Assembly (NCBI GenBank): GCA_963777605.1
Contig: CAVZRV010000051.1
Coordinates: 1-64,000 of the forward strand
DNA: 64,000 bases
Reading direction: 5' to 3'
From: an uncultured Acidobacteriota bacterium
GTDB taxonomy: Bacteria; Acidobacteriota; UBA6911; RPQK01; JAPXNP01
Position numbers and translations under genes: made by a program. The notes under the pieces were generated by a model that saw only the letters and a program-made list of their open reading frames with translations, was not told the origin of the DNA and ran no database searches. Shown here piece by piece: positions 37,436 to 64,000 of the stretch (position 1 is the first letter of the stretch; the number at the start of each line of letters is the position of its first letter).

Positions 37436-38436
37436 ATGGAGTTGATGTTTCCCAATGAGGAGAACCGTGTCGAAGTTGAGCTGACCGCCAAGGCGAAAGT
37501 TCTGGAGACCCTTGAACCTCTGGTCGAGGAGTTGATGGGGCAGCACCTCGAAAAGCGGAACCTCTGGTATTCGAGCGACTTCCTGCCGGCCGACGAACGG
37601 GAGAGTGATGAAACCGTCCGTGCCCTTACCCGGCTTCGCGACGGTGCCAGGGGGTTGCCGGATGCGGTTCGAGTGGCGGTTGCACTCAATTTGCTGACCG
37701 AAGAAGGGCTCCCTCACTTTCACCGGATTCTCTCAACCTATTTGGGCAGTAATAATGCCTGGAGCAAGTGGAACTTCCTGTGGACAGCCGAAGAAGATCG
37801 ACACGGAGCGGCATTGCGGGATCATGCCCGGGATGCCCGCCTGTTCCGCTTCCGTGAAATCGAAATGCTTCAGCACGCTTACAATGCCGAAGGCTTCACT
37901 CCGGACTGGGACAAGGATCCCTATCGAGTCTTTGTTTACACGACGCTTGCAAGAACGGGCGACTCAGTTCTCTCATCGCAATACCGGCCGGTTGGCGGGA
38001 GAATACGAGCCGGTCCTGAAGGCGATGCTCGAGCGGGTCGCGTCGGATGAAGCCAGGCACTTCAACTTCTACCGGCGAATCTTCAAGGGCATCCTCGAGA
38101 TCGATCCGAACCGTGCCCTCGAATCCCTCCTTTCGGTCGTTCCAAAGTTGCAGATGCCCGGCGTGACGATTCCTCACTTCAAGGAGATGGCGGACGTCGT
38201 CCGACGATCCGGGATCTATGGCCCCTGGGACTACAAGGAGATTGTCGAGCGTGCTCTCGAGTTCTGGAAGATTGGTGTTCTCACCGGCTTGAGTGAGAAG
38301 GGACGTCAGCGCCCAGGAACAGATCATGCGGATTCCAGAACGCCTCCAGAAGTTCGCAGAATTGATCGAGAGGAGGAGTACGACCAAGTCCTTCTCATTC
38401 GGGTTCCTTTACGATCGCATCTTCAGCATGGAGTAA
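37436..38436 (+). CDS. Acyl-ACP desaturase (soluble diiron), frameshifted
   Basis: WYSSDFLP, LLTEEGLP, WTAEEDRHG, QERAT, DEARH, MPG. Confidence 0.9.
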
Positions 38437-38872
38437 GGAAGAACGTCCCCACTCATGTCTTGACCGAAGCCACCGACCCGGGGGGCACCAAAAATGCGGC
38501 GATTGGCGAAGTATCGACGCCCGCCGCGGAGCCCGGGCTTCTGAAGGTGCCTCCTGTGGCCACCTGTCACCACGCTTAGTATCTGGAGCGGCGGGCGGAA
38601 CCGAGCTCACTTCCACTGGGGGGCCGGCGGTGCGCACTTCCTCAGCCCGAAAGGCTGCTGCTTTCGCGTCATCACTCTCCAAGAGTCTTTTGCCGGCGAG
38701 TGGACACTGTTGGTACTTCAGTCGAATATAGACAAATAGTGCCAGACCTCGCAGAAAGACTTTATCAGGAAGGGGTTTGCAGCCAGATTTGGGGCGTGTC
38801 ACCGATTTTCCTGGGCGATTGAGGACGTCGCGAGGGGGCCCTATAATCGTCGGAGAACTAGTCAGGAGAAAA

Positions 38873-40378
38873 ATGCCCATGTCCAAGTTGTTGACTCGAA
38901 CTGAATATCAGCAGATTGCCGATGGCCTCGATCTTCCTTCTCATGCCTATATCGCAGGTCAGTTTGTCCCGTCTTGCTCGGGCGAGACCATTGGGACGCA
39001 CAACCCTGCCACAGGCGAGCTGCTTAACCGGGTTGCTTCATGTGACCGCACCGATGTGGATCGAGCTGTCGGTGAAGCCCAGAAGACCTTTGACGGTGGA
39101 GTCTGGTCCCGTATGCATCCCGGCGACCGCAAGCGGATTCTAAAGCAGTGGGTGTCGCTCATCGGAGCGCACTGGGATGAACTGGCGGTGATGGAGAGCC
39201 TGGACAGCGGCAAGCCGATCCGGGATTGCGTCACGATTGACGTGCCCGAGACGATGCATTGCCTGACCTGGTATGCCGAAGCTATCGACAAGCTTTATGG
39301 CTCAGTGTCGCCATCCGGTGATCAGGCGATGGGAGTGATTTCCCGGGAACCGATGGGTGTGGTCGCCTGTGTTCTGCCCTGGAACTTTCCGCTCATGATG
39401 CTGGCCTGGAAGGCCGGCCCTGCCCTGGCAGCCGGCAATTCTCTAATCGTGAAACCCGCCGAACAGACCAGCATGACCGCACTCCGGGTCGCAGAACTGG
39501 CCGTCGAGGCCGGCATACCCCCCGGCGTTCTCAACGTGATTCCGGGCCTTGGGGAAAAGGCGGGTCAGGCGATCGGCCTCCACCCTCGGATTCAGGCGGT
39601 CTCCTTCACCGGTTCGACCGAGGTCGGCCGACTTTTTCTGGAGTACTCGGCCCGCAGCAACCTCAAGAAGATTGTGCTCGAGTGCGGCGGCAAGAGTCCT
39701 GCCGTCGTTCTGGAAGACGCCGAAAACCTCGATGCGGTGGCGCAGCACGTGGCCTTTGCCGTTCTCTGGAGCATGGGAGAGAATTGCACTGCGAATGGCA
39801 GACTGATTGTTCATCGCGCTCTCAAGGAAGATCTCTTGAGTCGGGTTCTGGAGCAGATGAGGCAGTGGAAGACCGGAGACCCACTGGAACCCGAGAACAG
39901 CCTGGGCGCCATCATCTCTCGGGAGCAGTTCGACAAGATTATGGGTTACATCGAAGAAGGAAAACGCGCCGGAGCCAAACTTCTTCTGGGAGGTCATTCG
40001 TTGGAAATGGGTGGCGGCCTTTTTGTTGCCCCGACCGTTTTCGATGAGGTTACGCCCGACATGGTGATCGCGCGGGAGGAAATTTTCGGTCCGGTGCTCT
40101 CCGTGCTGACAGTGGAGAGCGACGAACAGGCCATCGAATGGGCCAACGATACGGAGTATGGCCTGCAGGCGTCACTGTTCGCCGGGAACGTCAAGAAGGC
40201 AGTTCGCAATGCCCGCCGGTTGCAGGCGGGCACCGTCACTGTGAACTGCTACGGAGAGGGAGACATTACGACCCCCTTCGGAGGATTCAAACTGTCCGGG
40301 TTCGGCGGGCGAGACAACTCGCTCCAGGCCTTCGATCAATACATGGAAACAAAGACAATCTGGTTTGACCTGAGTTAG
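38873..40378 (+). CDS. Aldehyde dehydrogenase (PuuC-like)
   Basis: PWNFP, KPAE, FTGSTEVG, LECGGKSP, catalytic Cys in GENCTA, EEIFGPV, PFGGFKLSG. Confidence 0.95.
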   Translation: MPMSKLLTRTEYQQIADGLDLPSHAYIAGQFVPSCSGETIGTHNPATGELLNRVASCDRTDVDRAVGEAQKTFDGGVWSRMHPGDRKRILKQWVSLIGAHWDELAVMESLDSGKPIRDCVTIDVPETMHCLTWYAEAIDKLYGSVSPSGDQAMGVISREPMGVVACVLPWNFPLMMLAWKAGPALAAGNSLIVKPAEQTSMTALRVAELAVEAGIPPGVLNVIPGLGEKAGQAIGLHPRIQAVSFTGSTEVGRLFLEYSARSNLKKIVLECGGKSPAVVLEDAENLDAVAQHVAFAVLWSMGENCTANGRLIVHRALKEDLLSRVLEQMRQWKTGDPLEPENSLGAIISREQFDKIMGYIEEGKRAGAKLLLGGHSLEMGGGLFVAPTVFDEVTPDMVIAREEIFGPVLSVLTVESDEQAIEWANDTEYGLQASLFAGNVKKAVRNARRLQAGTVTVNCYGEGDITTPFGGFKLSGFGGRDNSLQAFDQYMETKTIWFDLS

Positions 40379-40384
40379 TGCAGG

Positions 40385-40404
40385 CTTAAGTCCGCTCGCC
40401 AGCT
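40385..40404 (+). other. Putative prophage att junction (tRNA-Thr-like 3' fragment)
   Basis: AAGT CCGCT CGCCAGC T resembles T-loop end, T-stem 3' strand, acceptor 3' strand and discriminator of GCTGGCG-type tRNA-Thr; lies at the host/phage boundary; TGTTGCGG repeats follow. Confidence 0.6.
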
Positions 40405-41609
40405 AGTCCTTTCTTTACAGCAGTTTGCGAATGATTCCTAGCCTTATTTGCGCCGACGTTCGACGCCGCTTGTTGCGGGTTTGTTGCGGAATTCACCTTT
40501 TCTTCACCTTTTTCTGTTGCGGATTTGTCGAGCCGTCGGACCCGTGGGTCGGCGTCTTCCGAGGGGATCCAGCGGGAATAGACGCTGAGGGTCGTGTTTG
40601 GGGTCGAGTGCCCTAGCTGGCGGCTCACGTACAGGATCGGCTCTCCCATCGAGAGCAGGATGGATGCAAACGTGTGCCGCAAGTTGTGGAGATTCCGGTA
40701 TCGGAGTTCCGCCTTGGCGAGCATCTTCTCCCATACGCGCTGGAAGTTCGGTGGGGAAAGCAGGTGACCGCCCCGCGTTGAAAAGATCCAGCCGCTTTTC
40801 CTGCGCTTTTCCTCGAGACGGGCAACGAGCTCAGGCGAGAGGTCGACGTTTCTGGTTGAGGATTCTGTTTTCGGCTGCTTCACACGCAGCGTTCCGATCT
40901 GCCGGCTCCGTGACACCCGCACCTGCCGCCGCTCCCAGTCGATGTCCTCCCACCGGAGGGCTGTGGCCTCGCCCCATCTCATGCCGGTGCGGGCCAGGAC
41001 CATCACGAGCAGCGCCCACCGTGAGAAGTGGGCCGTGGCAACAGCCTCAAGATGGTGCAGTTCTTGGAGCGTAAAGGGAACCATCTCCTTCTCTTCCCGG
41101 CGCGTCTTGCCGCCGTAGTGGCGGCTTAACGTGCGCGTCTGCACCGGGTTCGCCGGGATAATGTCCTCGTTGACGGCCTCGGAAAGCATGGCCGAGAGCG
41201 TGGCGAAGATGGTCCGTATACTGTCTTTCCGCAGACCTGACTTTGACTTGGCGATTGCCAGCCGCTTCATGTCGGCGTAGCGCAGCTCGTCGAGGGGGAT
41301 GGGCCCGAGAATGGGAAGAATGTGCAGTCGGAGCGTGGCCGCGTAGGAGACATACGTCTTTTCGGCCAAGTGGGGCTTGCGCTCCTCCAGCCACCGGGCG
41401 GCAAACTCTCTGAGCGACGGCGTGGTTTCCGCTTCAGCGGCTAGCTTGGCGAGTGTGCCGTCTTTTTCCAAGAGCATCAATGCCGTCATCTGCTCCGCGT
41501 AGTGATGGGCTTCGGCTTGTGTCGAAAAGGCTTTGCTGCGCCGCTGGCCCTTCCAGTTGATGTTCACGTACCACTTTCCCGGAAACCTCTCCTTGATTAC
41601 GATGCCCAC
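40386..41609 (-). CDS. int: Phage tyrosine integrase
   Basis: TGMRWGE, PKT, HNLRHTFAS, LGHS, VYS catalytic residues; GTG start with AGGAGG RBS. Confidence 0.96.
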   Translation of the reverse strand: MGIVIKERFPGKWYVNINWKGQRRSKAFSTQAEAHHYAEQMTALMLLEKDGTLAKLAAEAETTPSLREFAARWLEERKPHLAEKTYVSYAATLRLHILPILGPIPLDELRYADMKRLAIAKSKSGLRKDSIRTIFATLSAMLSEAVNEDIIPANPVQTRTLSRHYGGKTRREEKEMVPFTLQELHHLEAVATAHFSRWALLVMVLARTGMRWGEATALRWEDIDWERRQVRVSRSRQIGTLRVKQPKTESSTRNVDLSPELVARLEEKRRKSGWIFSTRGGHLLSPPNFQRVWEKMLAKAELRYRNLHNLRHTFASILLSMGEPILYVSRQLGHSTPNTTLSVYSRWIPSEDADPRVRRLDKSATEKGEEKVNSATNPQQAASNVGANKARNHSQTAVKKGLAGERT

Positions 41610-41770
41610 GCCTTGCCTCCTGCTTTGTTCCCCTGACCCGGATCGCATGAAATGACCGGGGATCATCAAGGTCCGAGCCGACGACCCACTCGGTGCCGTC
41701 AATGACGGTGCGCTCGTAGAGCCACCGGCTCGTCCCGTTGATCCGTTTCTTCAGCCGCTCGATGCGTACG

Positions 41771-43366: not shown

Positions 43367-44065
43367 CTAGGCGGCCCTCCCTCTCTGCTCCCGCTCCAGT
43401 GCGGCCTCGGCGCGCTGGATGATGACCTCGGCGTCCTCCTCGGTCAGGTTCGTAAACGCGGAATGGTTCATGAGAAACGCGGCCATGGTCTGGTCTTCGG
43501 TCTTGGAGGCCAGCGCCCGCATCCGATCCCGCTGAATCGGCGTGGCCTTCGGCTTGCCGTCGGACTTGTTCTTAAGCGGTGGTTCCGCAGCGGGCCGAGT
43601 CCCGGTGCCGGCCGGTGCGTCCAGGTCCTCCAGATCCTCGCCGCAGTAGATCGCCAGGCCAAGGCCGAAGGTGGCGATGTTTTTGGCAAGACAGCGCATG
43701 ATCGAGCGGTTGACGTCGAAGGCGTTCGGTTCCGCGATCACCTTGTTCCGGTTGTCCATGACCGGAAGCCACATCTTGTGGACGCGCACCTGTAGGGTGC
43801 CGTCTTCCATCGTTACCGGCACGTCCACCTTCGTCCATACGAACGTGCCGCCGGGCGTACGCTGGTAGGGGACGAGGGCACCGTCGGCCTCGGTAAACAT
43901 CAGCACGTCATAGGTCGCTGCGGGAGCGTGGCGCATCAACTGGTCCAAGGCGTGCGCCCAGGACAGGTACGTGAGGCTGCCCTTTTGCTCGACGAGCCCG
44001 ACGACGTTGACGTCCCGAAGGACGTGAAATAGATCCAGTGTTTGGTTTTGTGTCTCTTCTGCCAT
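43367..44065 (-). CDS. sak: Sak (DUF1071, Rad52-like) single-strand annealing protein
   Basis: LTYLSWA, LPVMDNRN, FDVNRSIMRCLAKNIATFGLGLAIYCGEDL. Confidence 0.9.
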   Translation of the reverse strand: MAEETQNQTLDLFHVLRDVNVVGLVEQKGSLTYLSWAHALDQLMRHAPAATYDVLMFTEADGALVPYQRTPGGTFVWTKVDVPVTMEDGTLQVRVHKMWLPVMDNRNKVIAEPNAFDVNRSIMRCLAKNIATFGLGLAIYCGEDLEDLDAPAGTGTRPAAEPPLKNKSDGKPKATPIQRDRMRALASKTEDQTMAAFLMNHSAFTNLTEEDAEVIIQRAEAALEREQRGRAA

Positions 44066-44174: not shown

Positions 44175-44239
44175 AGCCGGAATCGAACCGGCCTCCCTTC
44201 GCACCAGCCCTCGGCCAGCGAGCCGGAATCGAACCGGCC
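44175..44239 (-). repeat. Two identical 19-bp tRNA T-arm-like hairpins
   Basis: GGCCGGTTCGATTCCGGCT on the minus strand at 44175-44193 and 44221-44239. Confidence 0.85.
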
Positions 44240-44861: not shown

Positions 44862-45239
44862 ATGAAAAGGACAGAGTTACCGTCGAGCCGGACGCTGGCG
44901 ATCCTGGTCGGCCGGGTGGAGGAAGCGGCCGGGAAGGGGATTGAGAAGCAGGCGATGGCGCGGGCCATTGGGGTTCATCCGGCCGCGTTCTCGGCGCTTC
45001 TGGCCGGGCGGCGGGCCTGGAAGCTCGACTACCTGGACCGGTTGGCCGAGTTTTTGGGGCTGACGGTTGCGGATCTGTTCCACGAAGCGCCCGCCGGTCC
45101 GCTCAAGCTGCGGCGGATGCTCTGCCGGATTTATTCGGAGAGCACGGACACGCAGGCGCAGCGAGCCGTTGCTCTAACGATCGAGACGGCTTACCGGCTG
45201 CTGTTTGGCGCTGAAGAAGCGTCCGAGCAGCCAAAATGA
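44862..45239 (+). CDS. XRE/CI-like HTH repressor
   Basis: KQAMARAIGVHPAAFSALLAGRR...LAEFLGLTVADLF; only convincing plus-strand gene in the prophage. Confidence 0.85.
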   Translation: MKRTELPSSRTLAILVGRVEEAAGKGIEKQAMARAIGVHPAAFSALLAGRRAWKLDYLDRLAEFLGLTVADLFHEAPAGPLKLRRMLCRIYSESTDTQAQRAVALTIETAYRLLFGAEEASEQPK

Positions 45240-45545
45240 CCGACTGACAGACGAACTCGGACAGATCGTCCTCGCCGGAGGACAAGATCTCCCGAATCAC
45301 CTCAAGGCACCAAGACTCCTCACTCGCGTCTTCTGTCACCCTTGCCACCTGCACATGAAAAGAGCCGTGGATCGGATTGTCTTTGCCACGGCCCAAGCCT
45401 GTTCACGATTAATCAGAGTGTCAAGTCAGACGCCCGCTGAGTTGGCACTGAGCGTATAGTATCGAAACCGCTGGCGGGCGTGCAAGGGTCGGTTTTGAGA
45501 GCATTCGGGCGGGCGGCGAAGACCCGGATTGGGCGTGCTTCAGGC

Positions 45546-46789: not shown

Positions 46790-47133
46790 TTGCGAACCTC
46801 CCCGAAGCTGCCGACGGCAAGCTTCGTCAGTTTTTCGGCAAGAAACGGCGCGATCAGCTCAGACAGCGCCCCGAGAGTAAACAGCACGGACGGATGCGTG
46901 GGAATTGCGGCCTGCGGGCTTTCGCCAAACGCAAACTCGCCTGCAACCCAACTGCCAAGCATCCACACGCAGCCGATGGTCGTGGCCCAGGACAGGGCGT
47001 TTTCCGCCGTGGGGCAGAACAGCCAGTCCCACAGAAACGGCTTGAAGGGCAACTGCGACTTCGCGTTCAAGTAGGCGTCCCGCCCGAACTTGAGGACGAG
47101 GGCAAGGATCGCCCCGGTGAAATAGGCTCCCAT
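46786..47133 (-). CDS. Holin-like membrane protein
   Basis: About three TM segments, immediately after the endolysin. Confidence 0.55.
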   Translation of the reverse strand: MGAYFTGAILALVLKFGRDAYLNAKSQLPFKPFLWDWLFCPTAENALSWATTIGCVWMLGSWVAGEFAFGESPQAAIPTHPSVLFTLGALSELIAPFLAEKLTKLAVGSFGEVRK

Positions 47134-47135
47134 CA

Positions 47136-47593
47136 CTAGACCTCCCGCAAGAAGACGTGTTTGCCGACTACGAGCGTTTGGACCATCTGTGCCGCCCACG
47201 CCGGGGGCGTCTTCGTGACGGCGGGTGCGAAGTAGTGCGTCGCCCCGGCGGTCGGATCTCGTGTGGCCCCGAGCATGGCGAGATCTGCCGCCTCAAGACA
47301 ACGCCGCCAGACATCGACCGGCTTTGGCCCCAGGATGGCCGCGCGGTTCCGGTCGTCGCGATTCCAGCAGGAGAACTGAAACGGCTTCAGGCACACCGTT
47401 GTCCAGTCCTTCCCCCACCACGAGGGACGGCGGACGCGGTTGGCGATGACAAAGGCTACGGCGAGCTTTCCCAGATCGGACTCCCCGCGGGCCTCCCCGT
47501 AGACGGTCGCTGCGACCACCAGCCTCGGCTTCCAAGTCTCGGGCGGCACATTCGGATCCGGGAGTTCAAATCCGGAAAGCGAAGTGAAGTCAT
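47136..47593 (-). CDS. Endolysin, SleB/Hydrolase_2 cell wall hydrolase (start uncertain)
   Basis: YGEARGE...AVAFVIANRV, VC..PFQFSCWN, DPTAGATHYF, P.WA, VGKHVF. Confidence 0.92.
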
Positions 47594-47637
47594 CGCCGTT
47601 AGTGGTACCGGCGGAGAGCGGTTTTCCGCTCGACGCA

Positions 47638-47976
47638 GTATTTACTAATTGTTCTTGTTCCTGTTCCTGTTCCTGTTCTTGGCTTCGAGGGGCCTTCGAA
47701 GGGGGATCGAAGGGCCTTCGAAGGACCTTCCAAAAGCCGCTTGTCATGCGGGTCTCCATTTTTGGTGTTTTGGGGCCTTACTGAAGGGGTCATGAAAAGA
47801 GCCGAAAATCGTGAAATTGGTGAAAAATGCCTTCACATACCCTCTACGGGGCCTTCAGGTGGCCTTCCGAGGGGCATCGAAGGGGCTTCCAAGGGCCTTC
47901 TGAAATCTGCGTGGTTTCTGGATTTATCCCCCTTCGAAGGGGCATCGAAGGGCCTTTGAAGGCGCATCGAAGGAGG
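47638..47976. repeat. Iteron-like 11-mer arrays plus (TGTTCY)5 and AT-rich patch; putative phage replication origin
   Basis: About 14 phased 11-mers, consensus WTCGAAGGGSC, in clusters 47684-47738, 47843-47897 and 47933-47976; hexamers at 47650-47679. Confidence 0.8.
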
Positions 47977-48003
47977 TGAGCCGAGAGGTGCGCCTCAGAT
48001 CGC

Positions 48004-48373
48004 CTATTTTCGGAACCGGATGATCACGGCACTGGCCCGATTCGAGTTCAACATCAGGACGTTTGAAGGGTCGCTTTCTCCGGCCCAGTTTGAAGCCGTC
48101 ACGTAGAACCAGTGCTTTCCGGAATCGATCAGGATTCCGGTCTGGTGGCTCAGTTGGGTCACCGGAATCTCGGCAACCGCCGTAAAGGAGCCGGTGGCTG
48201 GGGTCGCTACCGGTACTGGATTCGTAAAGCGTGAAATGGTCGACGCCGTCCTCTGCCGCCCCGGGTGCGTCCCATTCGAGCGTAATCGGCTTAGTCGACG
48301 GCTGGGCTGCCAGATGCGCAACGAGCAAGGCAAGGAGAAGGGAAGCGAGTGCAACGAGTGGTTTCGGTTTCAT
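48004..48373 (-). CDS. Small secreted fibronectin-III-like protein, frameshifted
   Basis: Signal peptide, ITLEWDAP, FTLY, then WFYVTASNWAGESDPSN. Confidence 0.7.
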
Positions 48374-48469
48374 GGGGTTCCTTTCCGAAGGATCGGCCGG
48401 AGATCATGCCTGGTTCCGGCACGTAGTAATGAGCGCGGCAATTGGATTGCTTCCGGCCGCTGTCTCCAT

Positions 48470-48499
48470 AAAAAAAGCCGGGGCCTTGCGGCTCCCGGC
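48470..48499 (-). terminator. Rho-independent terminator
   Basis: GCCGGG...CCCGGC stem followed by T7 on the minus strand. Confidence 0.8.
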
Positions 48500-48526
48500 C
48501 GGGGTTCCAAACTTTCGGAGATGGGT

Positions 48527-48942
48527 CTAGCTTACGGGTGTCGGCTTGTCGTCGGTGCCCACGCCCTCGATAAACAGACGGTAGAGGCGAACGGCCCCTC
48601 TCGGAAACTTCTTTTCCTGGACCTTATCGCGCAAACACTTCGAAATCAGGTCCACCTCCTTGGAGTCAAACGAGAAGGGCCGCATCGTCTGCGGCAACAG
48701 GCCCGGTTCAAAGTCCACACCGCCGTTCGGCCAGACGATCACCGCGCCCGTCTTCATGAACTCTTCCCGTTCCTCGCGCCCGATCCGGATCCGCGTGGAA
48801 ATGTCCTCGGCAATGACGGCCTCGATCCAGTCGCCTTGCGCAGGGAGCAGGTTTTCAAGCACGATCCGGTCGCGGGCGTTCAGGGTGAAAAGCGGCCCGT
48901 GGTAGGCTCCGTCTTGGTTTCTGGAATGGCGTTTTTCTGCAT
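48527..48942 (-). CDS. Hypothetical phage protein (tail-fibre associated)
   Basis: GAGGA RBS; LNARDRIVLENLLPAQG; start approximate, probable indel. Confidence 0.55.
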
Positions 48943-49355: not shown

Positions 49356-52300
49356 TTAAGCGGCCAGTGCCAGCACTTGGTCTTCGTTGAGGCCGAAGCG
49401 GCAGGCGAGGCCATTGATGATCCGAAACAGGGCTTGGATCGACAGCGCGTTGTACGAGGTGGCGTTAATTGGGCTGAAGGACTTTCCGCCCGCGTAGTGG
49501 TCGTCGGGGTCCATCATCAGGTGCGGGGCTTCTTCGGCCAGCGCCCACAAGAACCGCGTGTGGTTAAAGGCGCCGTCCGCGTACCGCCCCCAGTGGTACT
49601 GCGTGTCGAGGACCGTCTTCAGGACCTCGGCGCGGTTCGGATTCTCGGGTTCCAGCAGCTTGTTCAGGCTGCCGTCCTTGCGGTACAGGAACGAGGTTTG
49701 CGTGCCGACTACGACCCCGGAAGAAACACTGCTGCCGGGGTCGCTCGTCTAGATGCGCAGTTGGTCGGAATTGTCGGCCCAGACGTAGTTTGTGGCCCCG
49801 TCAGCGGATACGAAGCACAGGGTTCCAGCCATCGTCGAAGAGGTCGATTTTCGCTGAAGCGTGAGGCCGCCGCGGTAGCCGCTCGGGTTTCCGAGGATCA
49901 GGCCCGCCGAATAGGTCGTGCTGTTGTTGGCGTACACCTGCACGGCCTCTTCCGTCCCCATGACCTTGATGACGAACGAACTGTCGGCGTGGTAGAAGTC
50001 CGTCCCGTTGTCCATGTAGAAGTTTTGGTACGTTTTCACGCCGGTCGCGTCGATGTCGAACGCGAGAGTTCCGGGCGTCCCCGTCGCTGAAAGGTAAAAC
50101 GAGAACCGGCTCCACGTCGCGAGGAGGGTATCGCCTCCGTAAACTGCCTTGATGTAGTTGTTCACGTCTCCGATGTACAGGTAGGCCGTTTCGTTGTTCG
50201 CGTCGAATCCGCTCGGCCCCTGGACCAGCGCATCGCCCCAAACCTGAAGCCCGTAGCAGTTGAAGCCGAAGCCGCTGGTGCAGGTCAGCCCGTCGAGCGT
50301 ATAGACAAGGCGACCGGCGTAGGTTCCGTGAATGAACTCGATATAGGGGCCGGAAGATCCCGTGGTCCCGACGTGAAGCCTGTCCGAATACTGCTGAAAG
50401 AACAGATCCCGAAGTTCGTCGCCGGTCGAGTAGTAAATGTCGTTGAAGAAGCCCACGTCGAACGGGTTCATGTCGGTCCCGAGGTTGATCGTCCCGGTGG
50501 CCGGTAGAATGTCCCTTGAAACGTAAATCCCGGCCTGCCGCCATCGCATGATCTCGGTCAAGCTGTTCGTCCCGCTTCCGTTTCCGACCTGAAGGGCGAC
50601 CGAGTAGCCGGTAGAAGCGTCCCATCCGAAAGCCCACGTATCGCCGCTACCCGCCCCGCGCCCTCCGATCCCGTCGAGGGAGGCGGAGGAACCGCCGTCG
50701 GAGATATGCCCGACTGCGATCATTGAGGCGGTCGAATCCGGGTCTACCGTCCCTGTCCAAACGACATCAAGGTGGCCGCTCAGTTTCTCGTTCCCGGATA
50801 CGGTCAGTGCGTATCCGCTAGCAGGTGTTGTCCCAATCCCCACGTCGCCCGAGAAATGCCCACCGCCGTTCACGTCCAGCAGGTAGCCGGGGCTGTTCGT
50901 CCCGATGCCCACGCGGCCCGTGGACCCGTCAATGCGCATCCGTTCATAGGCCAGCGTGTTGCCGCCAGCGACAAACACCATCTTCCCGTCTCATTTGTGC
51001 TGTGCCAGCACCAGATAATCGGTATAGGTGTCCGTGTGCAAGAGATGGCAGCGTTTAGCAGCGTCGTCGTGTACGCCCCGGTAAACGTCGCCGCATCGGT
51101 TCCAGTGACTTGGAGGCGCACCCACGGCTCGCCATGCGCCCCGGCCTGATTCCCGACAACGACATAGGCGATCTTCGTCGTGAGCTGAGATCGCACACGG
51201 AGAAATGGAACGTTATCGGTCGATTGAATGTCTAACCCGCACGCCCCGCTCGGGGCTTTCAGCATCATGTTCCCAAATACTTCGAGCGGATACGAGCCGG
51301 TCGGAGTTCCGCCAATGCCCACGTTTCCGAGCGCGTCAATTTCGATGTCGCCGGTGGCTTCCCAGTCTGACCCGTTGTGGCGCAGCGTCTGGTTCGCTGT
51401 CCCAGTGGGCAGGCTGCCGCCTGAAACCGTGGTCCACGAAAGCCCTCCCGCGCCGTCGGTTGTGAGTACCGTACCGGCTGCGGCTGCGGTCGCGGGCCAC
51501 GTGTAGGTCTTGCCGTTGAAGGTGGTGTTCGTGGCGTCAAGCGTCGTGCAGTAAACGCCTGCCCAGCGGGTCAACGTCTGCCAATATCCAGTGCCGCCCC
51601 TGCGGGAAGGAAATCCACAAAGGATAGCGTCAGCGCGGACTGCGTAAGGCTCAGGTAAGTGGTCGGAAGCACCGTCCCGAAGGTGAACGAGAAGCCGCTT
51701 GGCGCAACGTCCAAATAGGCGTCCCCGCTCCGCAGGTACGAGTGAGCGGTCGACCAGATGCGGATCGTGTTCCACTTGCGTTCCGGGCTGGTGGAAGCTG
51801 TTCCAATTTCAAGGTAGCCCGTGCCGTCGGTAATCGGCAGGAAGTACATTCCCGGGTTCGTGGCCCGGCTGAAGATCTCCGAGTACGGCGTCCAGTCCAC
51901 GCCCACGGCTCCGGTGCCGAACACGATGGCCGAATAATCGGAATCGTGTGAGTGCATATGGATGTCGGCCCCGGCGTTGAGGTGCAGGTAGCTGTTCGTC
52001 TCGATCTCTGCGGCGCTGACCTTGCCGAGAATGGCGTTGAGCGCGGCCAGGTCCTTCGTGATGACCTGCTCGGCAATGATGATGTCCTTGCCTTCGGCCG
52101 TGAACGCCTTGAAGCGGATGAAGCCGGTGGCGTCGTTGGGAACCCGGATCACGCCCACGCAGACCTTCGTATTCCCGCGCGCGTCGCTCGTGTTCGTGCT
52201 GGCGTACAGGTTGACGTTGCCGACGTTCTTGTAGACCCAATACGTTGCGCCGTGCGTCAGGTCGGTGAAGGTCTTTTGATTGAAGCTCTCCGAGGAGTTG

Positions 52301-57772: not shown

Positions 57773-59968
57773 TTACCTCACTCTCGGGTCGTCAAAGATG
57801 TGGTCGGAAAGCCGCCCAATTTCCCCGCCGTTCTCCATGAGCGGCACAATCCCGCCATGTTCCTCCACTCCCAGCACCACCACGTTCCCCGGAGAGGTGG
57901 CTGAGAGGCGCGAGAAATGTCCGTTCAACTGCGTCACCGCCTCCACCAGTGCGCCGTCGGACTGGTACGGGGACGCCTGCGTGGTGATGGGCCGCTGGCC
58001 GGTGACATCCATCGTGTACTCTCCCGGCCTGCTGAGAGGCGATTCCTGCGTGTAGATGGGATTGTAGGCACTCCCCGGTGCGCCACCAGCGCCCACTGCG
58101 CCAGCGACCGCACCGACGCCGCTGCCCGCGGCTCCGGCCACGGCTCCCACGGTCGTCAACACGCCCCCGGTCGCAATCAGCTTCGTGCCGTGCGTGATCA
58201 GGTCGGCACGCGGGCCGAAAGGCGGTGGAGCCATTCCAAGCGCAACCTCCGCCGTTCCTTGTCCGATCAAGTGACCGCCGATCTTCGTAAGGATCTGCGC
58301 CGCCACCTGCGCCATGGCCGCAGCTGCAGCCGCGCCGCCGGAGCGGATTCCGTTGGCAATCAAGGTGAAGGAACTGGAGAAGAGGCTGCCCATCTCCTGC
58401 ACCGTGGAAGCGGTGCGCTGGATCTCGGCAACCATCACGTTGGAGACGTTCGCCATTTCCCACTCCACCTCTTCGGGCGTGGGGATGCCGAGCCAGTCAC
58501 GCCAGATCGGGCCGGTTTCTGTCACAAGGTCATGTTTTGCCGTCAGCGCCATGTCGCGGATCAGAGAACCGGCGTCCGAGGCAACCACATCGAAGGCGTC
58601 AATGGCCGCTTGCGTTCCCTGCTCGATCTCGTCTGGCGTGGGAATGCCCATCCAGTCACGCCAGATGTCTCCTTGCCCCGACAACTTCTCTTGGATGACG
58701 CCGGAGAGGTCAGGGAACTGAAGGCCCTCGAAGTATTCGTAGATGGGAATGGCTTTCATGGCGGCTTCAAAGCCTTCGTTAAACGCCTCGCCGCCCTGCT
58801 GCACCCGCCTTGCGCCCACCTTCTGCAGCGGCAGGAGCCAGTTTCCCGGCCTGAAAATCCGCGAAGGTCTTCTCGAAGTTCTCGGCGGATTTGCCAAGGG
58901 CCTCAGCCAGCGTATCCAAGCCCTTGGAGGCCTCCACCGCCATTTCCCCGGTCTGCTTGAGAACGTCCGAGTGGGTGAAGACGCCTTGAAGCTCCGCGTA
59001 CAGCCCCGCGTAGTAGAGCAGCCCGGAGCCGAACTTGCCGACGGCCCAGCCCGCCGTAGACAGCGCCTGTGCCGAGAGGATCGCCAGGCCGACCCCGGCG
59101 TGGACCGCATCGTTGAACTGCTTTTGCGCGTCTTCGGAGCCGGTGAACTCCGTGACCAGTGAATCCAGGACCGGAATCAACTGGTTCCCGAGTTGGAACT
59201 TGGCCCCTTCCACGGCGTGGTTCAGGATGGTCAACTGGTCGTTGAAGTGCTCCGCCTTGGCCGCAGTATCGGCGTCGAACACGATGCCCAAGGCGTGGGC
59301 CTTGTCCGCCATCTCCTGCAGCCCGTCCCGGCCACTGTTCAGGAGCGGGATCAGTTCCGCCCCGGAGCGGCCAAAGATGTCCATGGCGAGGGCAGTCTTC
59401 TTGCCGCCGTTCTCCATTGCGGCGAACCGTTCAGCCACTTCGTACAGGAGCGTCTTCTGGTCCTTGACCTCCCCGCTGGCGTCCCGACGGAGACACCGAG
59501 TTCGCGGAAGGCGTCCTTTGCGGTCCCCGTGCCGCGGCTGCCTCCTGGGCGTTTCGGGCCAGTATCCGCAGCCCGGTCCCCACGCCGTCAATCGACGTGC
59601 CGGAAAGTTCGGCGGACAGGCGCAGTTCACTGAGAAGCTGCGTGGGCACGCCCAAGGAGCGGGACAGCTTGGCGATCTCGTCCTGCGTCTTGGCGGTGCC
59701 GAAGATGGACTCCTCGACGAAGTCCTTGAAAGCCCACGGCAAGGCGCTTCACGCCGTCGATCAGGACGCTGATGCCCCGCATGAGCAGGTCGGCGGCGAT
59801 CATGCCCTTGAACATATCCCCGGCCATGCCGCCGAACGTGCCGCTGCTGTTCTGCTTGAGGTGCTTCACCTCGCTGTTGACCTGCTCGAAGCTCTCATCG
59901 AGGTTCTGGACCCCGCGTACAGCGCCCTTCTCGTCAAGGTCAACCTCAATCCTTACTTTCGCGGACAT
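57773..59968 (-). CDS. Tail tape measure protein, frameshifted
   Basis: KTALAMDIFGRSGAELIPLLN motif, Ala/Gly-rich helices, WRDWxGIPTP repeat; ORFs 59627-59968, 59431-59742, 58779-59630, 57773-59110. Confidence 0.88.
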
Positions 59969-63024: not shown

Positions 63025-63492
63025 ACGCGGGTCAGTCTCGTGGCCGGGGAACCGCTCCGAGATGCTGGATCAGGAGCAGGATCTCCAGCGTGAAAGGCCA
63101 GTTCGAACTCGGGGCGGGTGGTGGTTCGCCCTGTACGCCGCCCGCATCCGACTGCCCGCCCATCTGCGGGCTGAGCAGCCGTTCGGCCAGTTCACAGGTG
63201 GCTTCCTTGAGTTCCGCCGGGATGGTCGTCTCATCGACCCACGCGCCGCGGCGGTCCACGCAGCCCGTACGCGGCCATTGGAGTGCCTGTGTCGACGTCG
63301 TACGGCTGCCCTTTGTCCACATCAGCAGGCGGTCCAAGAGTTGCGTGGCCCGCATCGAGGGCCTGCTCCTTCTTCGTGCCGTCCGACGACAGCCAGACCT
63401 GCGGAGGGATGCAGCATGGCGAAGTAGACGTCGGCGTCTGCGACGGTCACGTACGAGTTAGCCGAGGCTCCGCCCACGGTGGCATCGAGCAT
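63021..63492 (-). CDS. Head-tail adaptor (DnaT_2-like family), frameshifted
   Basis: ANSYVTVADADVYF...RATQLLD...QALQWPR...IPAELKEATCELA. Confidence 0.8.
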
Positions 63493-63495
63493 CAC

Positions 63496-63690: not shown

Positions 63691-63765
63691 TGGGGGCGGG
63701 AGAGGGACTCGAACCCTCGACCACCGGCTTATGAGGCCGGGAAGCTGCCGCTGCTCCATCTCGCC
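63691..63765 (-). tRNA. Prophage-encoded tRNA, anticodon CAT (Met/Ile2-like, atypical identity)
   Basis: GGCGAGA TG GAGC AGCGGCA GCTT C CCGGC CTCATAA GCCGG TGGTC GAGGG TTCGAGT CCCTC TCCCGCC C CCA. Confidence 0.9.
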
Positions 63766-63848: not shown

Positions 63849-64000
63849 TTAGCTACGCAGCCGGACGGCCAGGTTCGGGTCGAGGCACTTAAAGCCGTAG
63901 AGGACATCCAGTGCCACATAGATGGCCGACTGGTTGCCCTCGTAAAAGACCCGGGAGCGAAGCGCGATGTTGGTCTTCGGATCGGGGATCGTCTCGACCT
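63849..64000 (-). CDS. Major capsid protein C-terminus (P22 coat-like)
   Basis: Manual translation ...IALRSRVFY...ALDVLYGFKCLDPNLAVRLRS*. Confidence 0.85.
   Translation of the reverse strand, partial: VETIPDPKTNIALRSRVFYEGNQSAIYVALDVLYGFKCLDPNLAVRLRS

Follow-up and report, generated by a model that had tools for sequence, protein, structure and literature searches.

The stretch of DNA analyzed here, called the window below, comprises the first 64,000 nucleotides (64 kb) of contig CAVZRV010000051.1 in assembly GCA_963777605.1, from an uncultured Acidobacteriota bacterium. It carries chromosomal genes up to ~40.4 kb and a prophage from there on. Between the tail genes and the lysis genes of this prophage lies a cassette of short repeats, which occupies the 454-bp gap from a gene for a small FN3-like protein to the probable canonical start of an endolysin gene. 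An original prediction, made from the letters of the sequence, had read this cassette as a phage replication origin detached from any rep gene. We find that it very probably derives from the origin-type region that lies inside the genes of a large family of phage initiator (Rep) proteins. We propose, tentatively, that it is a condensed version of that region which lacks rep, was placed here by recombination, and could still be loaded by a Rep protein supplied in trans.

Architecture of the repeat cassette

The repeat unit of the cassette is 11 bp long and is made up of an 8-bp palindrome, CTTCGAAG, and, after it, a G/C-rich spacer of 3 bp. Tandem Repeats Finder (TRF) reports three arrays of period 11, at 47683-47730 (4.4 copies), 47849-47900 (4.7 copies), and 47934-47973 (3.6 copies). 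We scored the units by their mismatches to the 8-bp core along exact 11-bp chains and called a unit firm if it had no more than 2. Scored in this way, iteron cluster 1 (47683-47737) has 5 units with 1, 0, 2, 0, and 2 mismatches, and iteron cluster 3 (47932-47975) has 4 units with 0, 1, 1, and 1. Iteron cluster 2 (47853-47907) has firm units at 47864, 47875, and 47886 (47864-47896, with 2, 1, and 1 mismatches) and 2 weak flanking units at 47853 and 47897 with 3 mismatches each. None of the clusters is assigned a strand.

The total is 12 firm units, or 14 by a generous count. The original prediction had described about 14 imperfect 11-mers in three clusters and in exact 11-bp register; the clusters and the approximate number stand, but the register is exact only inside each cluster, since the offsets between cluster starts, 170 and 79 bp, equal 5 and 2 modulo 11 and leave the clusters mutually out of register. 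Comparable chains of the 11-bp core were seen in none of 200 block-shuffled copies of the window. Copies of the 11-mer given in that prediction, counted at no more than 1 mismatch, are indeed clustered, with 11 of the 15 in the window falling inside 47684-47954, but a total of 15 was reached by 5 of 100 shuffles. The motif GAACAGGAACAG, again at no more than 1 mismatch, occurs 4 times in the window versus 0.33 expected, and 3 of the 4 are in the cassette.

The iterons span 293 bp overall, and the first firm units of clusters 2 and 3 lie 137 and 205 bp from the last unit of cluster 1. Spacer polarity does not differ among the three clusters, each of which has decayed units at its ends, and the clusters can be aligned with one another at a mean column identity of 74%. 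Clusters 1 and 2 can be aligned through all five units, and because this alignment includes the decayed units at the ends, the two look like block duplicates and not like the outcome of simple slippage. A variant of the core, ATCGAAG, alternates with CTTCGAAG to produce a 22-bp super-repeat, and TRF reads cluster 3 in this form with 90% matches. A search for inverted repeats across 47450-48100 returned mostly iteron clusters pairing with one another and no terminal repeats that would mark an inserted element.

Cluster 1 abuts a (CAR-GAA)n tract at 47649-47681. The minus-strand sequence of the tract is CAAGAACAGGAACAGGAACAGGAACAAGAACAA, which codes for QEQEQEQEQEQ when read in phase with the endolysin open reading frame (ORF). 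TRF describes the tract as a period-6 array of TGTTCC, with 4.8 copies at 47650-47678; its minus-strand form is GAACAG, so that the strand-biased GAACAG tract of the original prediction is present as described. So is the AT-rich patch, GTATTTACTAATT, at 47639-47651 (no strand) on the outer edge of the hexamer tract, within a stretch of 35-40% GC that covers 47620-47679. GC content drops again, to 37-45%, across 47760-47839, versus ~60% elsewhere in the window. This second dip falls in the low-GC spacer between clusters 1 and 2 (47738-47852, no strand), which has A-tracts at 47796, 47806, 47815, and 47824 at spacings of 10, 9, and 9 bp and also contains ATG 47759 and ATG 47747, the latter preceded by GGAG. 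Two peptides that had been read from the minus strand, SPFEGPSKP and PRSQEQEQEQEQ, are both encoded there, in two different frames.

Homology to DNA inside phage initiator genes

A blastn search of the cassette against 50,697 phage records returned 21 records, from phages of Acinetobacter, Escherichia, Shigella, Klebsiella, and Ralstonia. Only the hexamer tract and the first iterons were matched, at 75-91% identity, and every match was listed under a coding sequence (CDS) named DNA replication protein O, primosomal protein I, DNA-binding protein, or hypothetical protein. We translated five of the matched CDS, 3 from phages, 1 from an Ideonella plasmid, and 1 an E. coli copy, and they form one family, here called MRDY-type Rep after the residues with which its members start.

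The likeness includes the point where the iterons meet the hexamer tract. In the window, this junction, ..CTTCGAAGC|CA(A/G)GA(A/G).., falls in the register that it has in all of the Rep genes compared (7/7). The window junction reads ..CCTCGAAGC|CAAGAACAGG.., and at the point where the last core of cluster 1 abuts the CAR-GAA tract the window reads ..CTCGAAGC|CAAGAACAG... The reading frame is common to both as well, giving PSKAPRSQEQEQEQEQEQ in the window and PSKPLRSQEQEQEQEQEQ in Rep (PSK..RSQEQEQ). The original prediction had connected the cassette with such a linker of phage Rep proteins, and the connection holds: 'PSK...RSQEQEQ' is real in phage initiator proteins, and the cassette is homologous to the iteron-plus-linker DNA inside their genes.

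Profile searches gave the same picture. An nhmmer DNA profile made from the 7 Rep genes, without the window, matched 47703-47650 on the minus strand with E = 2.6e-14. Six further matches at E ≤ 3.4e-4 all fell inside 47681-47971, where the best E values were 3.3e-6 for cluster 2 and 1.1e-5 for cluster 3, while the next match elsewhere in the 64 kb had E = 0.23. On the protein side, phrog_25210 matched residues 14-43 of the endolysin ORF in an unbiased scan, and a profile hidden Markov model (HMM) of 33 Rep homologues matched the 5' extension of that ORF over HMM positions 143-173 (E = 2.9e-5).

The rest of a Rep protein was sought by tblastn with 2 Rep proteins and with the 33-homologue profile against all 1,822 six-frame pieces of the 64 kb, and only the linker was found. 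HMM positions 1-140 gave only insignificant matches (E = 0.53), to the iteron-encoded EGASKGL motif (59-73), which in the window is present on the opposite strand only, and the C-domain gave none. Since the tblastn and six-frame profile matches are confined to the linker, we rejected a Rep protein encoded in the window, and the view that no initiator ORF surrounds the cassette is borne out across all six frames. That the cassette is 'detached from any rep gene' thus holds within the window, but the statement does not carry beyond it, where the prophage continues and the contig ends.

In a plasmid collection, 234 records matched the cassette. The Salmonella and Citrobacter rows listed involve the low-complexity hexamer tract only, and few plasmid records reach the iterons, examples being an Ideonella megaplasmid, Klebsiella, and an E. 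coli O157 record. Among complete E. coli genomes, 519 of 5,426 have a match to the cassette, and all 40 rows sampled across the ranking (40/40) fall under a CDS. Cassette-like DNA therefore sits at rep-type CDS in 21 of 21 phage records, in 40 of 40 E. coli rows, and in 5 of 5 Rep-bearing loci from the genome scan described below, with some of these CDS verified as members of the family. Compared with every other context seen, the detached state of the cassette in the window is unusual. We consider it highly probable that the cassette was derived from this Rep-type origin region.

The MRDY-type initiator family and its in-gene iterons

Proteins of the family are ~300-360 aa long, start with MRDY.., and have a strongly conserved N-domain of ~145 aa that contains ..HETGLGLEGASKGL.., followed by ..EAPSKPLRSQEQEQEQ.. 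and by variable C-terminal parts. A QEQEQ linker connects the N-domain to the C-terminal domains, which are interchangeable. Examples are QBP28610.1 of Klebsiella phage ST974-OXA48phi18.2, WNT46721.1 of Acinetobacter phage A3926.3, WP_105812220.1 of Ideonella, and WP_001205823.1 of E. coli EDL933. The family matches PHROGs 1701 ('DnaD-like helicase loader'), 12196, and 25210. No model in Pfam or NCBIfam covers it, and a search of the PDB by sequence returned nothing below E = 0.06. In the ESM Atlas, a whole homologue retrieved only viral clusters labeled 'hypothetical', and the nearest named families, PF09524, PF07261, and PF17948 at 0.94, serve as leads only. A search with the N-domain returned at least 1,168 protein clusters (90% identity) at E ≤ 1e-5, some of them with PF09524 or PF17948 C-termini. 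The range of the family takes in phages and prophages of Gammaproteobacteria, Betaproteobacteria, Alphaproteobacteria, Acidobacteriota, and Planctomycetota. Its genes occupy the position of lambda O, preceded by immunity and cII-type genes and followed by a DnaC-like ATPase.

The loci examined for iterons range from ~40% to 67% GC. In every case seen, the iterons of this family lie within rep or immediately before it. In the rep genes, one 11-bp cluster runs up to the very edge of the (CAR-GAR)n tract, and a second lies ~220-240 bp upstream, in the part that codes for the N-domain. The upstream cluster encodes EGASKGL, and its spacer polarity is opposite to that of the linker cluster. Because one repeat is kept in two frames and two polarities within a single rep gene, the constraint is expected to act at the level of DNA, as for initiator-binding iterons, and not at the level of protein. 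By analogy with lambda, the repeats in the rep genes would be sites bound by the Rep N-domain that together form the origin. In the literature, we found no experiment showing these repeats to be an origin in any member of the family, nothing relevant on EGASKGL or the TTCGAAGGGGC motif, and nothing on iterons of non-lambdoid Stx phages. The available sections of the Eru paper (PMC8044961) mention neither the iterons nor this Rep protein, and those of PMC8914354 deal with plasmid iterons only.

The number of iterons per locus can be compared directly with the cassette. Acinetobacter phage A3926.3 (locus L127 of the genome scan) has 3 + 4 + 3 units and locus L089 has 8 + 4. Given these natural loads, the 12-14 units in the window amount to a whole origin's worth, with no excess. 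The third cluster of A3926.3, at 43819-43851, is located just upstream of the rep start codon, which suggests that rep is autoregulated by its own product.

The layout has a familiar counterpart. In the lambda origin, oriλ, the initiator-binding repeats lie in the middle of gene O, between the regions for a DNA-binding N-domain and a partner-specific C-domain, and beside an easily melted tract. The MRDY-type rep genes follow the same layout logic with no sequence relation: their iterons are 11 bp with an 8-bp palindrome, compared with ~19 bp in lambda, and the cassette, unlike oriλ, lies outside any rep gene. No match to Phage_rep_O was found among the window ORFs scanned (55 ORFs across 37.7-64 kb in one scan and 34 in another) or in the matching Rep proteins. 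The description of the cassette as a lambdoid-type origin is accordingly apt for its layout but not for its initiator, which belongs to a family without Phage_rep_O or any other Pfam match. If these points hold, they expose a large initiator family without a Pfam, NCBIfam, or solved-structure relative, and the in-gene iterons together with the junction provide a testable prediction of the origin and binding site.

11-bp arrays in other genomes

We searched 185,579 species genomes for a pattern of three TCGAAGG cores set 11 bp apart, which returned at least 122 loci, and we took 2-kb flanks for 80 of them. The pattern was too permissive, in that it also caught unrelated 11-bp arrays; the contig of the window was not among the loci. 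By tblastn, 5 of the at least 122 loci are arrays in Rep genes, and they belong to Mycoplana (Alphaproteobacteria), a Burkholderiales metagenome-assembled genome (MAG), two Acidobacteriota MAGs, and a Tepidisphaeraceae (Planctomycetota) MAG. The last of these, L125, is from the Planctomycetes-Verrucomicrobia-Chlamydiae (PVC) superphylum, in which the gene flanking the prophage in the window also has its closest named relatives. These five loci extend the Rep family and its iterons well past the Proteobacteria and into the PVC superphylum, and the DNA sequence of the 11-bp iteron and its junction is conserved across Acinetobacter, Acidobacteriota, and Planctomycetota. The same 11-bp units are present in L001-L003, L027, L066, L089, L092, L125, L127, and L128. 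When the window was compared with the 122 loci by blastn, the best matches for all three of its clusters were Rep-gene loci, namely L125, L089, L092, and L027 (4 of the 5), the exception being L048, which ranked low.

Most of the other loci, which come from many phyla, have 11-bp arrays with different unit sequences and no link to Rep. Four loci from Verrucomicrobia (L006, L064, L097, and L117) have a core of the CTTCGAAG type with no QEQ tract and no Rep, and these four are absent among the matches listed for the window against the 122 loci. The L006 array (1988-2042) lies between an OmpA-family gene and a gene of the agmatine-deiminase type, and the L064 array (1757-1800) is near a GH116 gene.

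The scan also brought up a separate and widespread repeat family made of TGTCGAAGGGY runs with an 11-bp period, preceded by GTCACCCTGAGC. Chitinophagaceae and Candidatus Cybelea are among the MAGs that carry it, and a single genome often has several such loci (L007, L010, L029, L030, L039, L078, L081, L082, L090, L100, L104, and others). Multi-copy elements with (ATCTCGAAGGC)n or (GTCGAAGGATR)n arrays and a conserved flanking frame occur in the Bacteroidales MAG AS06rmzACSIP_563 (16 loci, e.g., L019, L020, L024, and L111) and in Paraflavisolibacter caeni (8 loci, e.g., L015, L018, and L114). These look like dispersed repeat elements that are unrelated to the Rep family.

The endolysin ORF and its 5' extension

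On its minus strand, the window encodes an endolysin core of the SleB/Hydrolase_2 type at 47136-47549 (Pfam PF07486, E = 2.3e-19, 70.3 bits versus a cut-off of 27; also PHROG endolysin families). The ORF in which the core lies, 47136-47759, is 207 aa long and runs on through the hexamer tract and cluster 1, where it reads ...RRPFDPPSKAPRSQEQEQEQEQEQLVN.... Its 5' extension, 47550-47759 on the minus strand, spans cluster 1, the QEQ tract, and a stretch rich in S, G, T, and D.

We recovered 791 endolysin homologues. The best 120 are mostly 125-190 aa long and match roughly the last 60-70% of the ORF, the exception to these shorter homologues being the window's own endolysin call, at 203 aa. All eight homologues that we aligned (8/8) are without the extension and begin 5-14 residues ahead of the conserved ARTLYGEARGE motif, a position that corresponds to the in-frame GTG 47549. 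The GC content at third codon positions (GC3) is 0.52 in the extension versus 0.82 in the endolysin core. Since the homologues begin at this position and the GC3 of the extension differs from that of the core, the canonical start of the endolysin is probably GTG 47549. The 454-bp stretch 47550-48003 is therefore best treated as intergenic, with an in-frame upstream ORF extension that begins at ATG 47747 or ATG 47759. The residues 'FW' near the start of the ORF were considered as a remnant of the Rep N-terminus and rejected, as they are encoded by a decayed iteron, which is also the case in L089.

Interpretation of the cassette

The cassette shares with the rep-internal region of MRDY-type initiators the 11-bp unit, the palindromic core, the junction between iterons and (CAR-GAR)n tract, and the reading frame. 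The number of units is comparable, and one of the phages likewise has three clusters. Polarity, spacing, and lost coding sequence differ, however, so the cassette is not simply a truncated rep gene. It has no coding sequence for the N- or C-domain, even between its clusters, and it is positioned between tail and lysis genes, whereas rep loci follow the immunity region. Judged on sequence, the cassette looks like the cis elements alone, comprising upstream-type clusters, a linker-side cluster, and the tract.

The explanation that we favor is as follows. In the MRDY-type family, the 11-bp repeats would be both the binding sites of the Rep N-domain and the origin. Recombination would then have carried a copy of the origin-type region into the gap between the tail and lysis genes. 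A cognate Rep acting in trans, encoded by the portion of the prophage that lies outside the window or by a relative that is co-resident or infecting, would load the array, and the loaded cassette would serve in cis as an origin or as an auxiliary initiator-binding site. The array may still be loadable, because the palindromic cores have been kept although no coding constraint acts on them, and because the DNA that flanks them is low in GC and has phased A-tracts. We hold this reading as a whole only tentatively, although we prefer it to any other, and we are similarly hesitant about its central element, the functional binding of the array by Rep, which the pattern of conserved cores makes plausible. 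Initiator-binding repeats away from the initiator gene are not without parallel: ori and crr of satellite phage P4, P1 incA, and Vibrio crtS are clusters of such repeats that act in cis or as control sites. They resemble the cassette in their distance from the initiator gene; their initiators and repeats are unrelated, and their initiator genes are known, in the same or a partner replicon, whereas for the cassette none is known.

Several observations weigh against this proposal. The window holds no Rep gene or remnant and hence no known protein that would load the sites, and the origin status of the repeats is itself an inference by analogy with lambda-type initiator genes. A detached cluster is also not normal for this system, since chains in the phages that we scanned all sit at rep: 3 of 3 in the whole A3926.3 genome and 2 of 2 in the Klebsiella phage, which was covered from its start to nt 50,000 of 51,967, with no remote site in either. 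The cassette has a single spacer polarity, while the N-domain and linker clusters of rep genes have opposite orientations, and a second cluster of the rep type, 220-240 bp upstream, in the opposite polarity, and encoding EGASKGL in the rep sense, is absent from it. Its clusters are spaced differently, covering 293 bp in all versus ~520 bp in the Acinetobacter phage. The L006 and L064 arrays have a similar core and are flanked by ordinary chromosomal genes, which is a caveat for clusters 2 and 3. Frameshifts occur even in the host genes of this contig (see below), so that reading frames and exact spacings are soft. Finally, we found no related prophage with the same junction, which would have shown conservation.

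This last point bears equally on the main rival, which was not among the options of the original prediction; those were an origin served in trans, parasitism on the Rep of a helper phage, and a decoy. The cassette could be a dead recombination scar, in which illegitimate or repeat-mediated recombination between phages stranded the repeat-rich middle of a rep gene at a module junction and blocks of it were duplicated locally, with no present function. Its location exactly on the boundary of the tail and lysis modules, the missing Rep, the low GC3 of an extension that all eight homologues lack, and the decayed terminal units of each cluster all fit. The clusters are block copies, and unequal crossing-over can yield such copies without selection. 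On the other hand, 12 units keep the core at no more than 2 mismatches although the Rep coding sequence is all gone, the iteron load equals that of complete natural loci, and the surroundings are low in GC and A-tract-phased, as in working origins. None of these three points is decisive, and we rate a scar as possible but rather unlikely. If it is only a scar, the cassette would be an ordinary mosaic joint and a caution for ORF callers, since the endolysin as called, at 203 aa, includes an extension that looks spurious.

The cassette could also be an initiator sink, an array that titrates or handcuffs the Rep of superinfecting or co-resident phages of the family and so protects the lysogen or the prophage. 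Precedents are the lactococcal Per system and control loci such as P1 incA, in which iterons lie outside the origin. The many sites in the cassette and the want of an initiator gene in the window would suit this role. A further precedent is the 'inhibition phenotype' of lambda, in which rep-lambda phages are blocked by plasmids with iterons ITN3-4 and oop (PMC3349717). For lambda as for Per, however, the effect came from multicopy plasmids, while a prophage is single-copy, and PADLOC matched no defence family in 16 neighbouring ORFs beyond weak HTH (helix-turn-helix) and coiled-coil matches. We regard a sink as improbable.

We give as little credence to an array unrelated to Rep that influences how the lysis genes are expressed, whether by binding a protein, by forming an RNA structure, or as a phase-variable tract prone to slippage. 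TCGAAGG loci of 11-bp period number at least 122 across many phyla, mostly without a Rep link, the Verrucomicrobia arrays of the same core lie upstream of ordinary genes, and the unit length of 11 bp is not divisible by 3. The minus-strand RNA of 47540-48010 is also predicted to be more stable than shuffled sequences (z = -3.43, with 0 of 100 equally stable), and in the predicted fold cluster 3 pairs with cluster 1 around the upstream ATG. This pairing is weak evidence for a role of the RNA, however, because palindromic units pair automatically. A search of Rfam with the window at the gathering threshold and with 47300-48200 at E ≤ 1 returned only two tRNAs, both elsewhere, and no promoter- or terminator-like site was found in 47000-48600 with the sigma-70 consensus, which may not be that of the host. 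The exact Rep-type junction with the QEQ tract, and the fact that the window clusters match the Rep-gene arrays best among the 122 loci, also speak against a generic array.

In plasmid R1, parC consists of two sets of five 11-bp repeats bound by ParR. A plasmid-type, parC-like partition centromere would match the 11-bp period and the two clusters of five units in the cassette, but it is very improbable, as the 55 ORFs of 37.7-64 kb scanned with Pfam and the 34 scanned with PHROG gave no partition gene, of ParM/ParR type or any other, the element is integrated and has an integrase, and the repeats are those of a Rep family.

A loadable, Rep-less origin-type cassette thus remains our preferred reading. 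A bolder version, in which the cassette is a working stand-alone origin or an initiator trap, and the prophage or its late region is replicated by, or soaks up, the Rep of whatever phage of the family shares or infects its host, seems unlikely to us. If true, it would mean that a portable cis element allows phage genomes to exploit or block each other's replication across very distant hosts. Should the cassette bind Rep, it would reveal which parts of the in-gene origin are needed and that such origins are able to move as independent cassettes. Mobile origin cassettes, if they exist, would have consequences for phage-phage interference, for the exploitation of helpers, and for the annotation of prophage origins.

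Prophage context and assembly quality

The assignments of neighbouring genes by Pfam and PHROG confirm that the cassette lies between the tail and lysis modules. The left end of the prophage is marked by an integrase gene (40386-41699, minus strand), after which come minus-strand genes for SSB, an HTH_17 protein, a Gp157-like protein, and a Sak annealing protein. A Cro/CI-type HTH gene on the plus strand (44862-45236) is divergent from these, and membrane or coiled-coil ORFs of lysis type occupy the minus strand between it and the endolysin ORF. On the other side of the cassette, the gene for the small secreted FN3-like protein (48004-48373, minus strand) is the last of the tail-side block. 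It is in two frames, split near 48200, and its assignment was made by inspection of the sequence, with no match in Pfam or PHROG. Tail genes, including those for tape measure and tail tube, and neck genes follow up to 63.5 kb.

The sequence appears to be rich in insertion and deletion errors. Host genes are frameshifted, including those for a fatty acid desaturase (37436-38576, whose halves match HMM positions 2-160 and 156-288) and a Mur ligase (577-1657, with the M and C domains in separate ORFs). Prophage genes are frame-split as well, namely those for the FN3-like protein (47924-48373), a head-tail adaptor (63032-63495), and the tape measure protein (57773-59627). Because host and prophage genes are both affected, an indel-rich assembly is a better explanation than decay of the prophage alone.

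The right end of the prophage lies beyond the window, as a capsid-like ORF (63849-63998) runs off its end. The source contig is 67,449 bp, so the head, terminase, and further early genes cannot all be on it. A tRNA-Met gene (63691-63765, minus strand) is situated between the head-tail adaptor ORFs (63032-63495) and the capsid-like ORF. It is inside the prophage and therefore would be phage-borne or a junction marker, not a prophage boundary, and we saw no convincing direct repeat joining the integrase end to it as att sites. The stop of the integrase is 7 bp from the stop of a convergent aldehyde dehydrogenase gene (40376-40388), which means that the left attachment site must overlap a gene end. 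The closest named relatives of this aldehyde dehydrogenase are from Lentisphaeria, Kiritimatiellia, and Sumerlaeota MAGs, at 67-69% identity, and judged by this gene the host is PVC-like.

Two minor repeats were also observed. A 21-nt stretch (CATGAAAAGAGCCG...ATCG) is present near the HTH gene (45354-45374) and again, 2.4 kb away, in the cassette spacer (47791-47811), with 18 of 21 positions identical, and this may be chance. Perfect 19-bp direct repeats (AGCCGGAATCGAACCGGCC) occur between the Sak and HTH genes, at 44175-44193 and 44221-44239, 46 bp apart. On the minus strand they resemble the T-arm and 3' halves of tRNAs, although ARAGORN calls no tRNA there, and they may be the remnants of old att sites.

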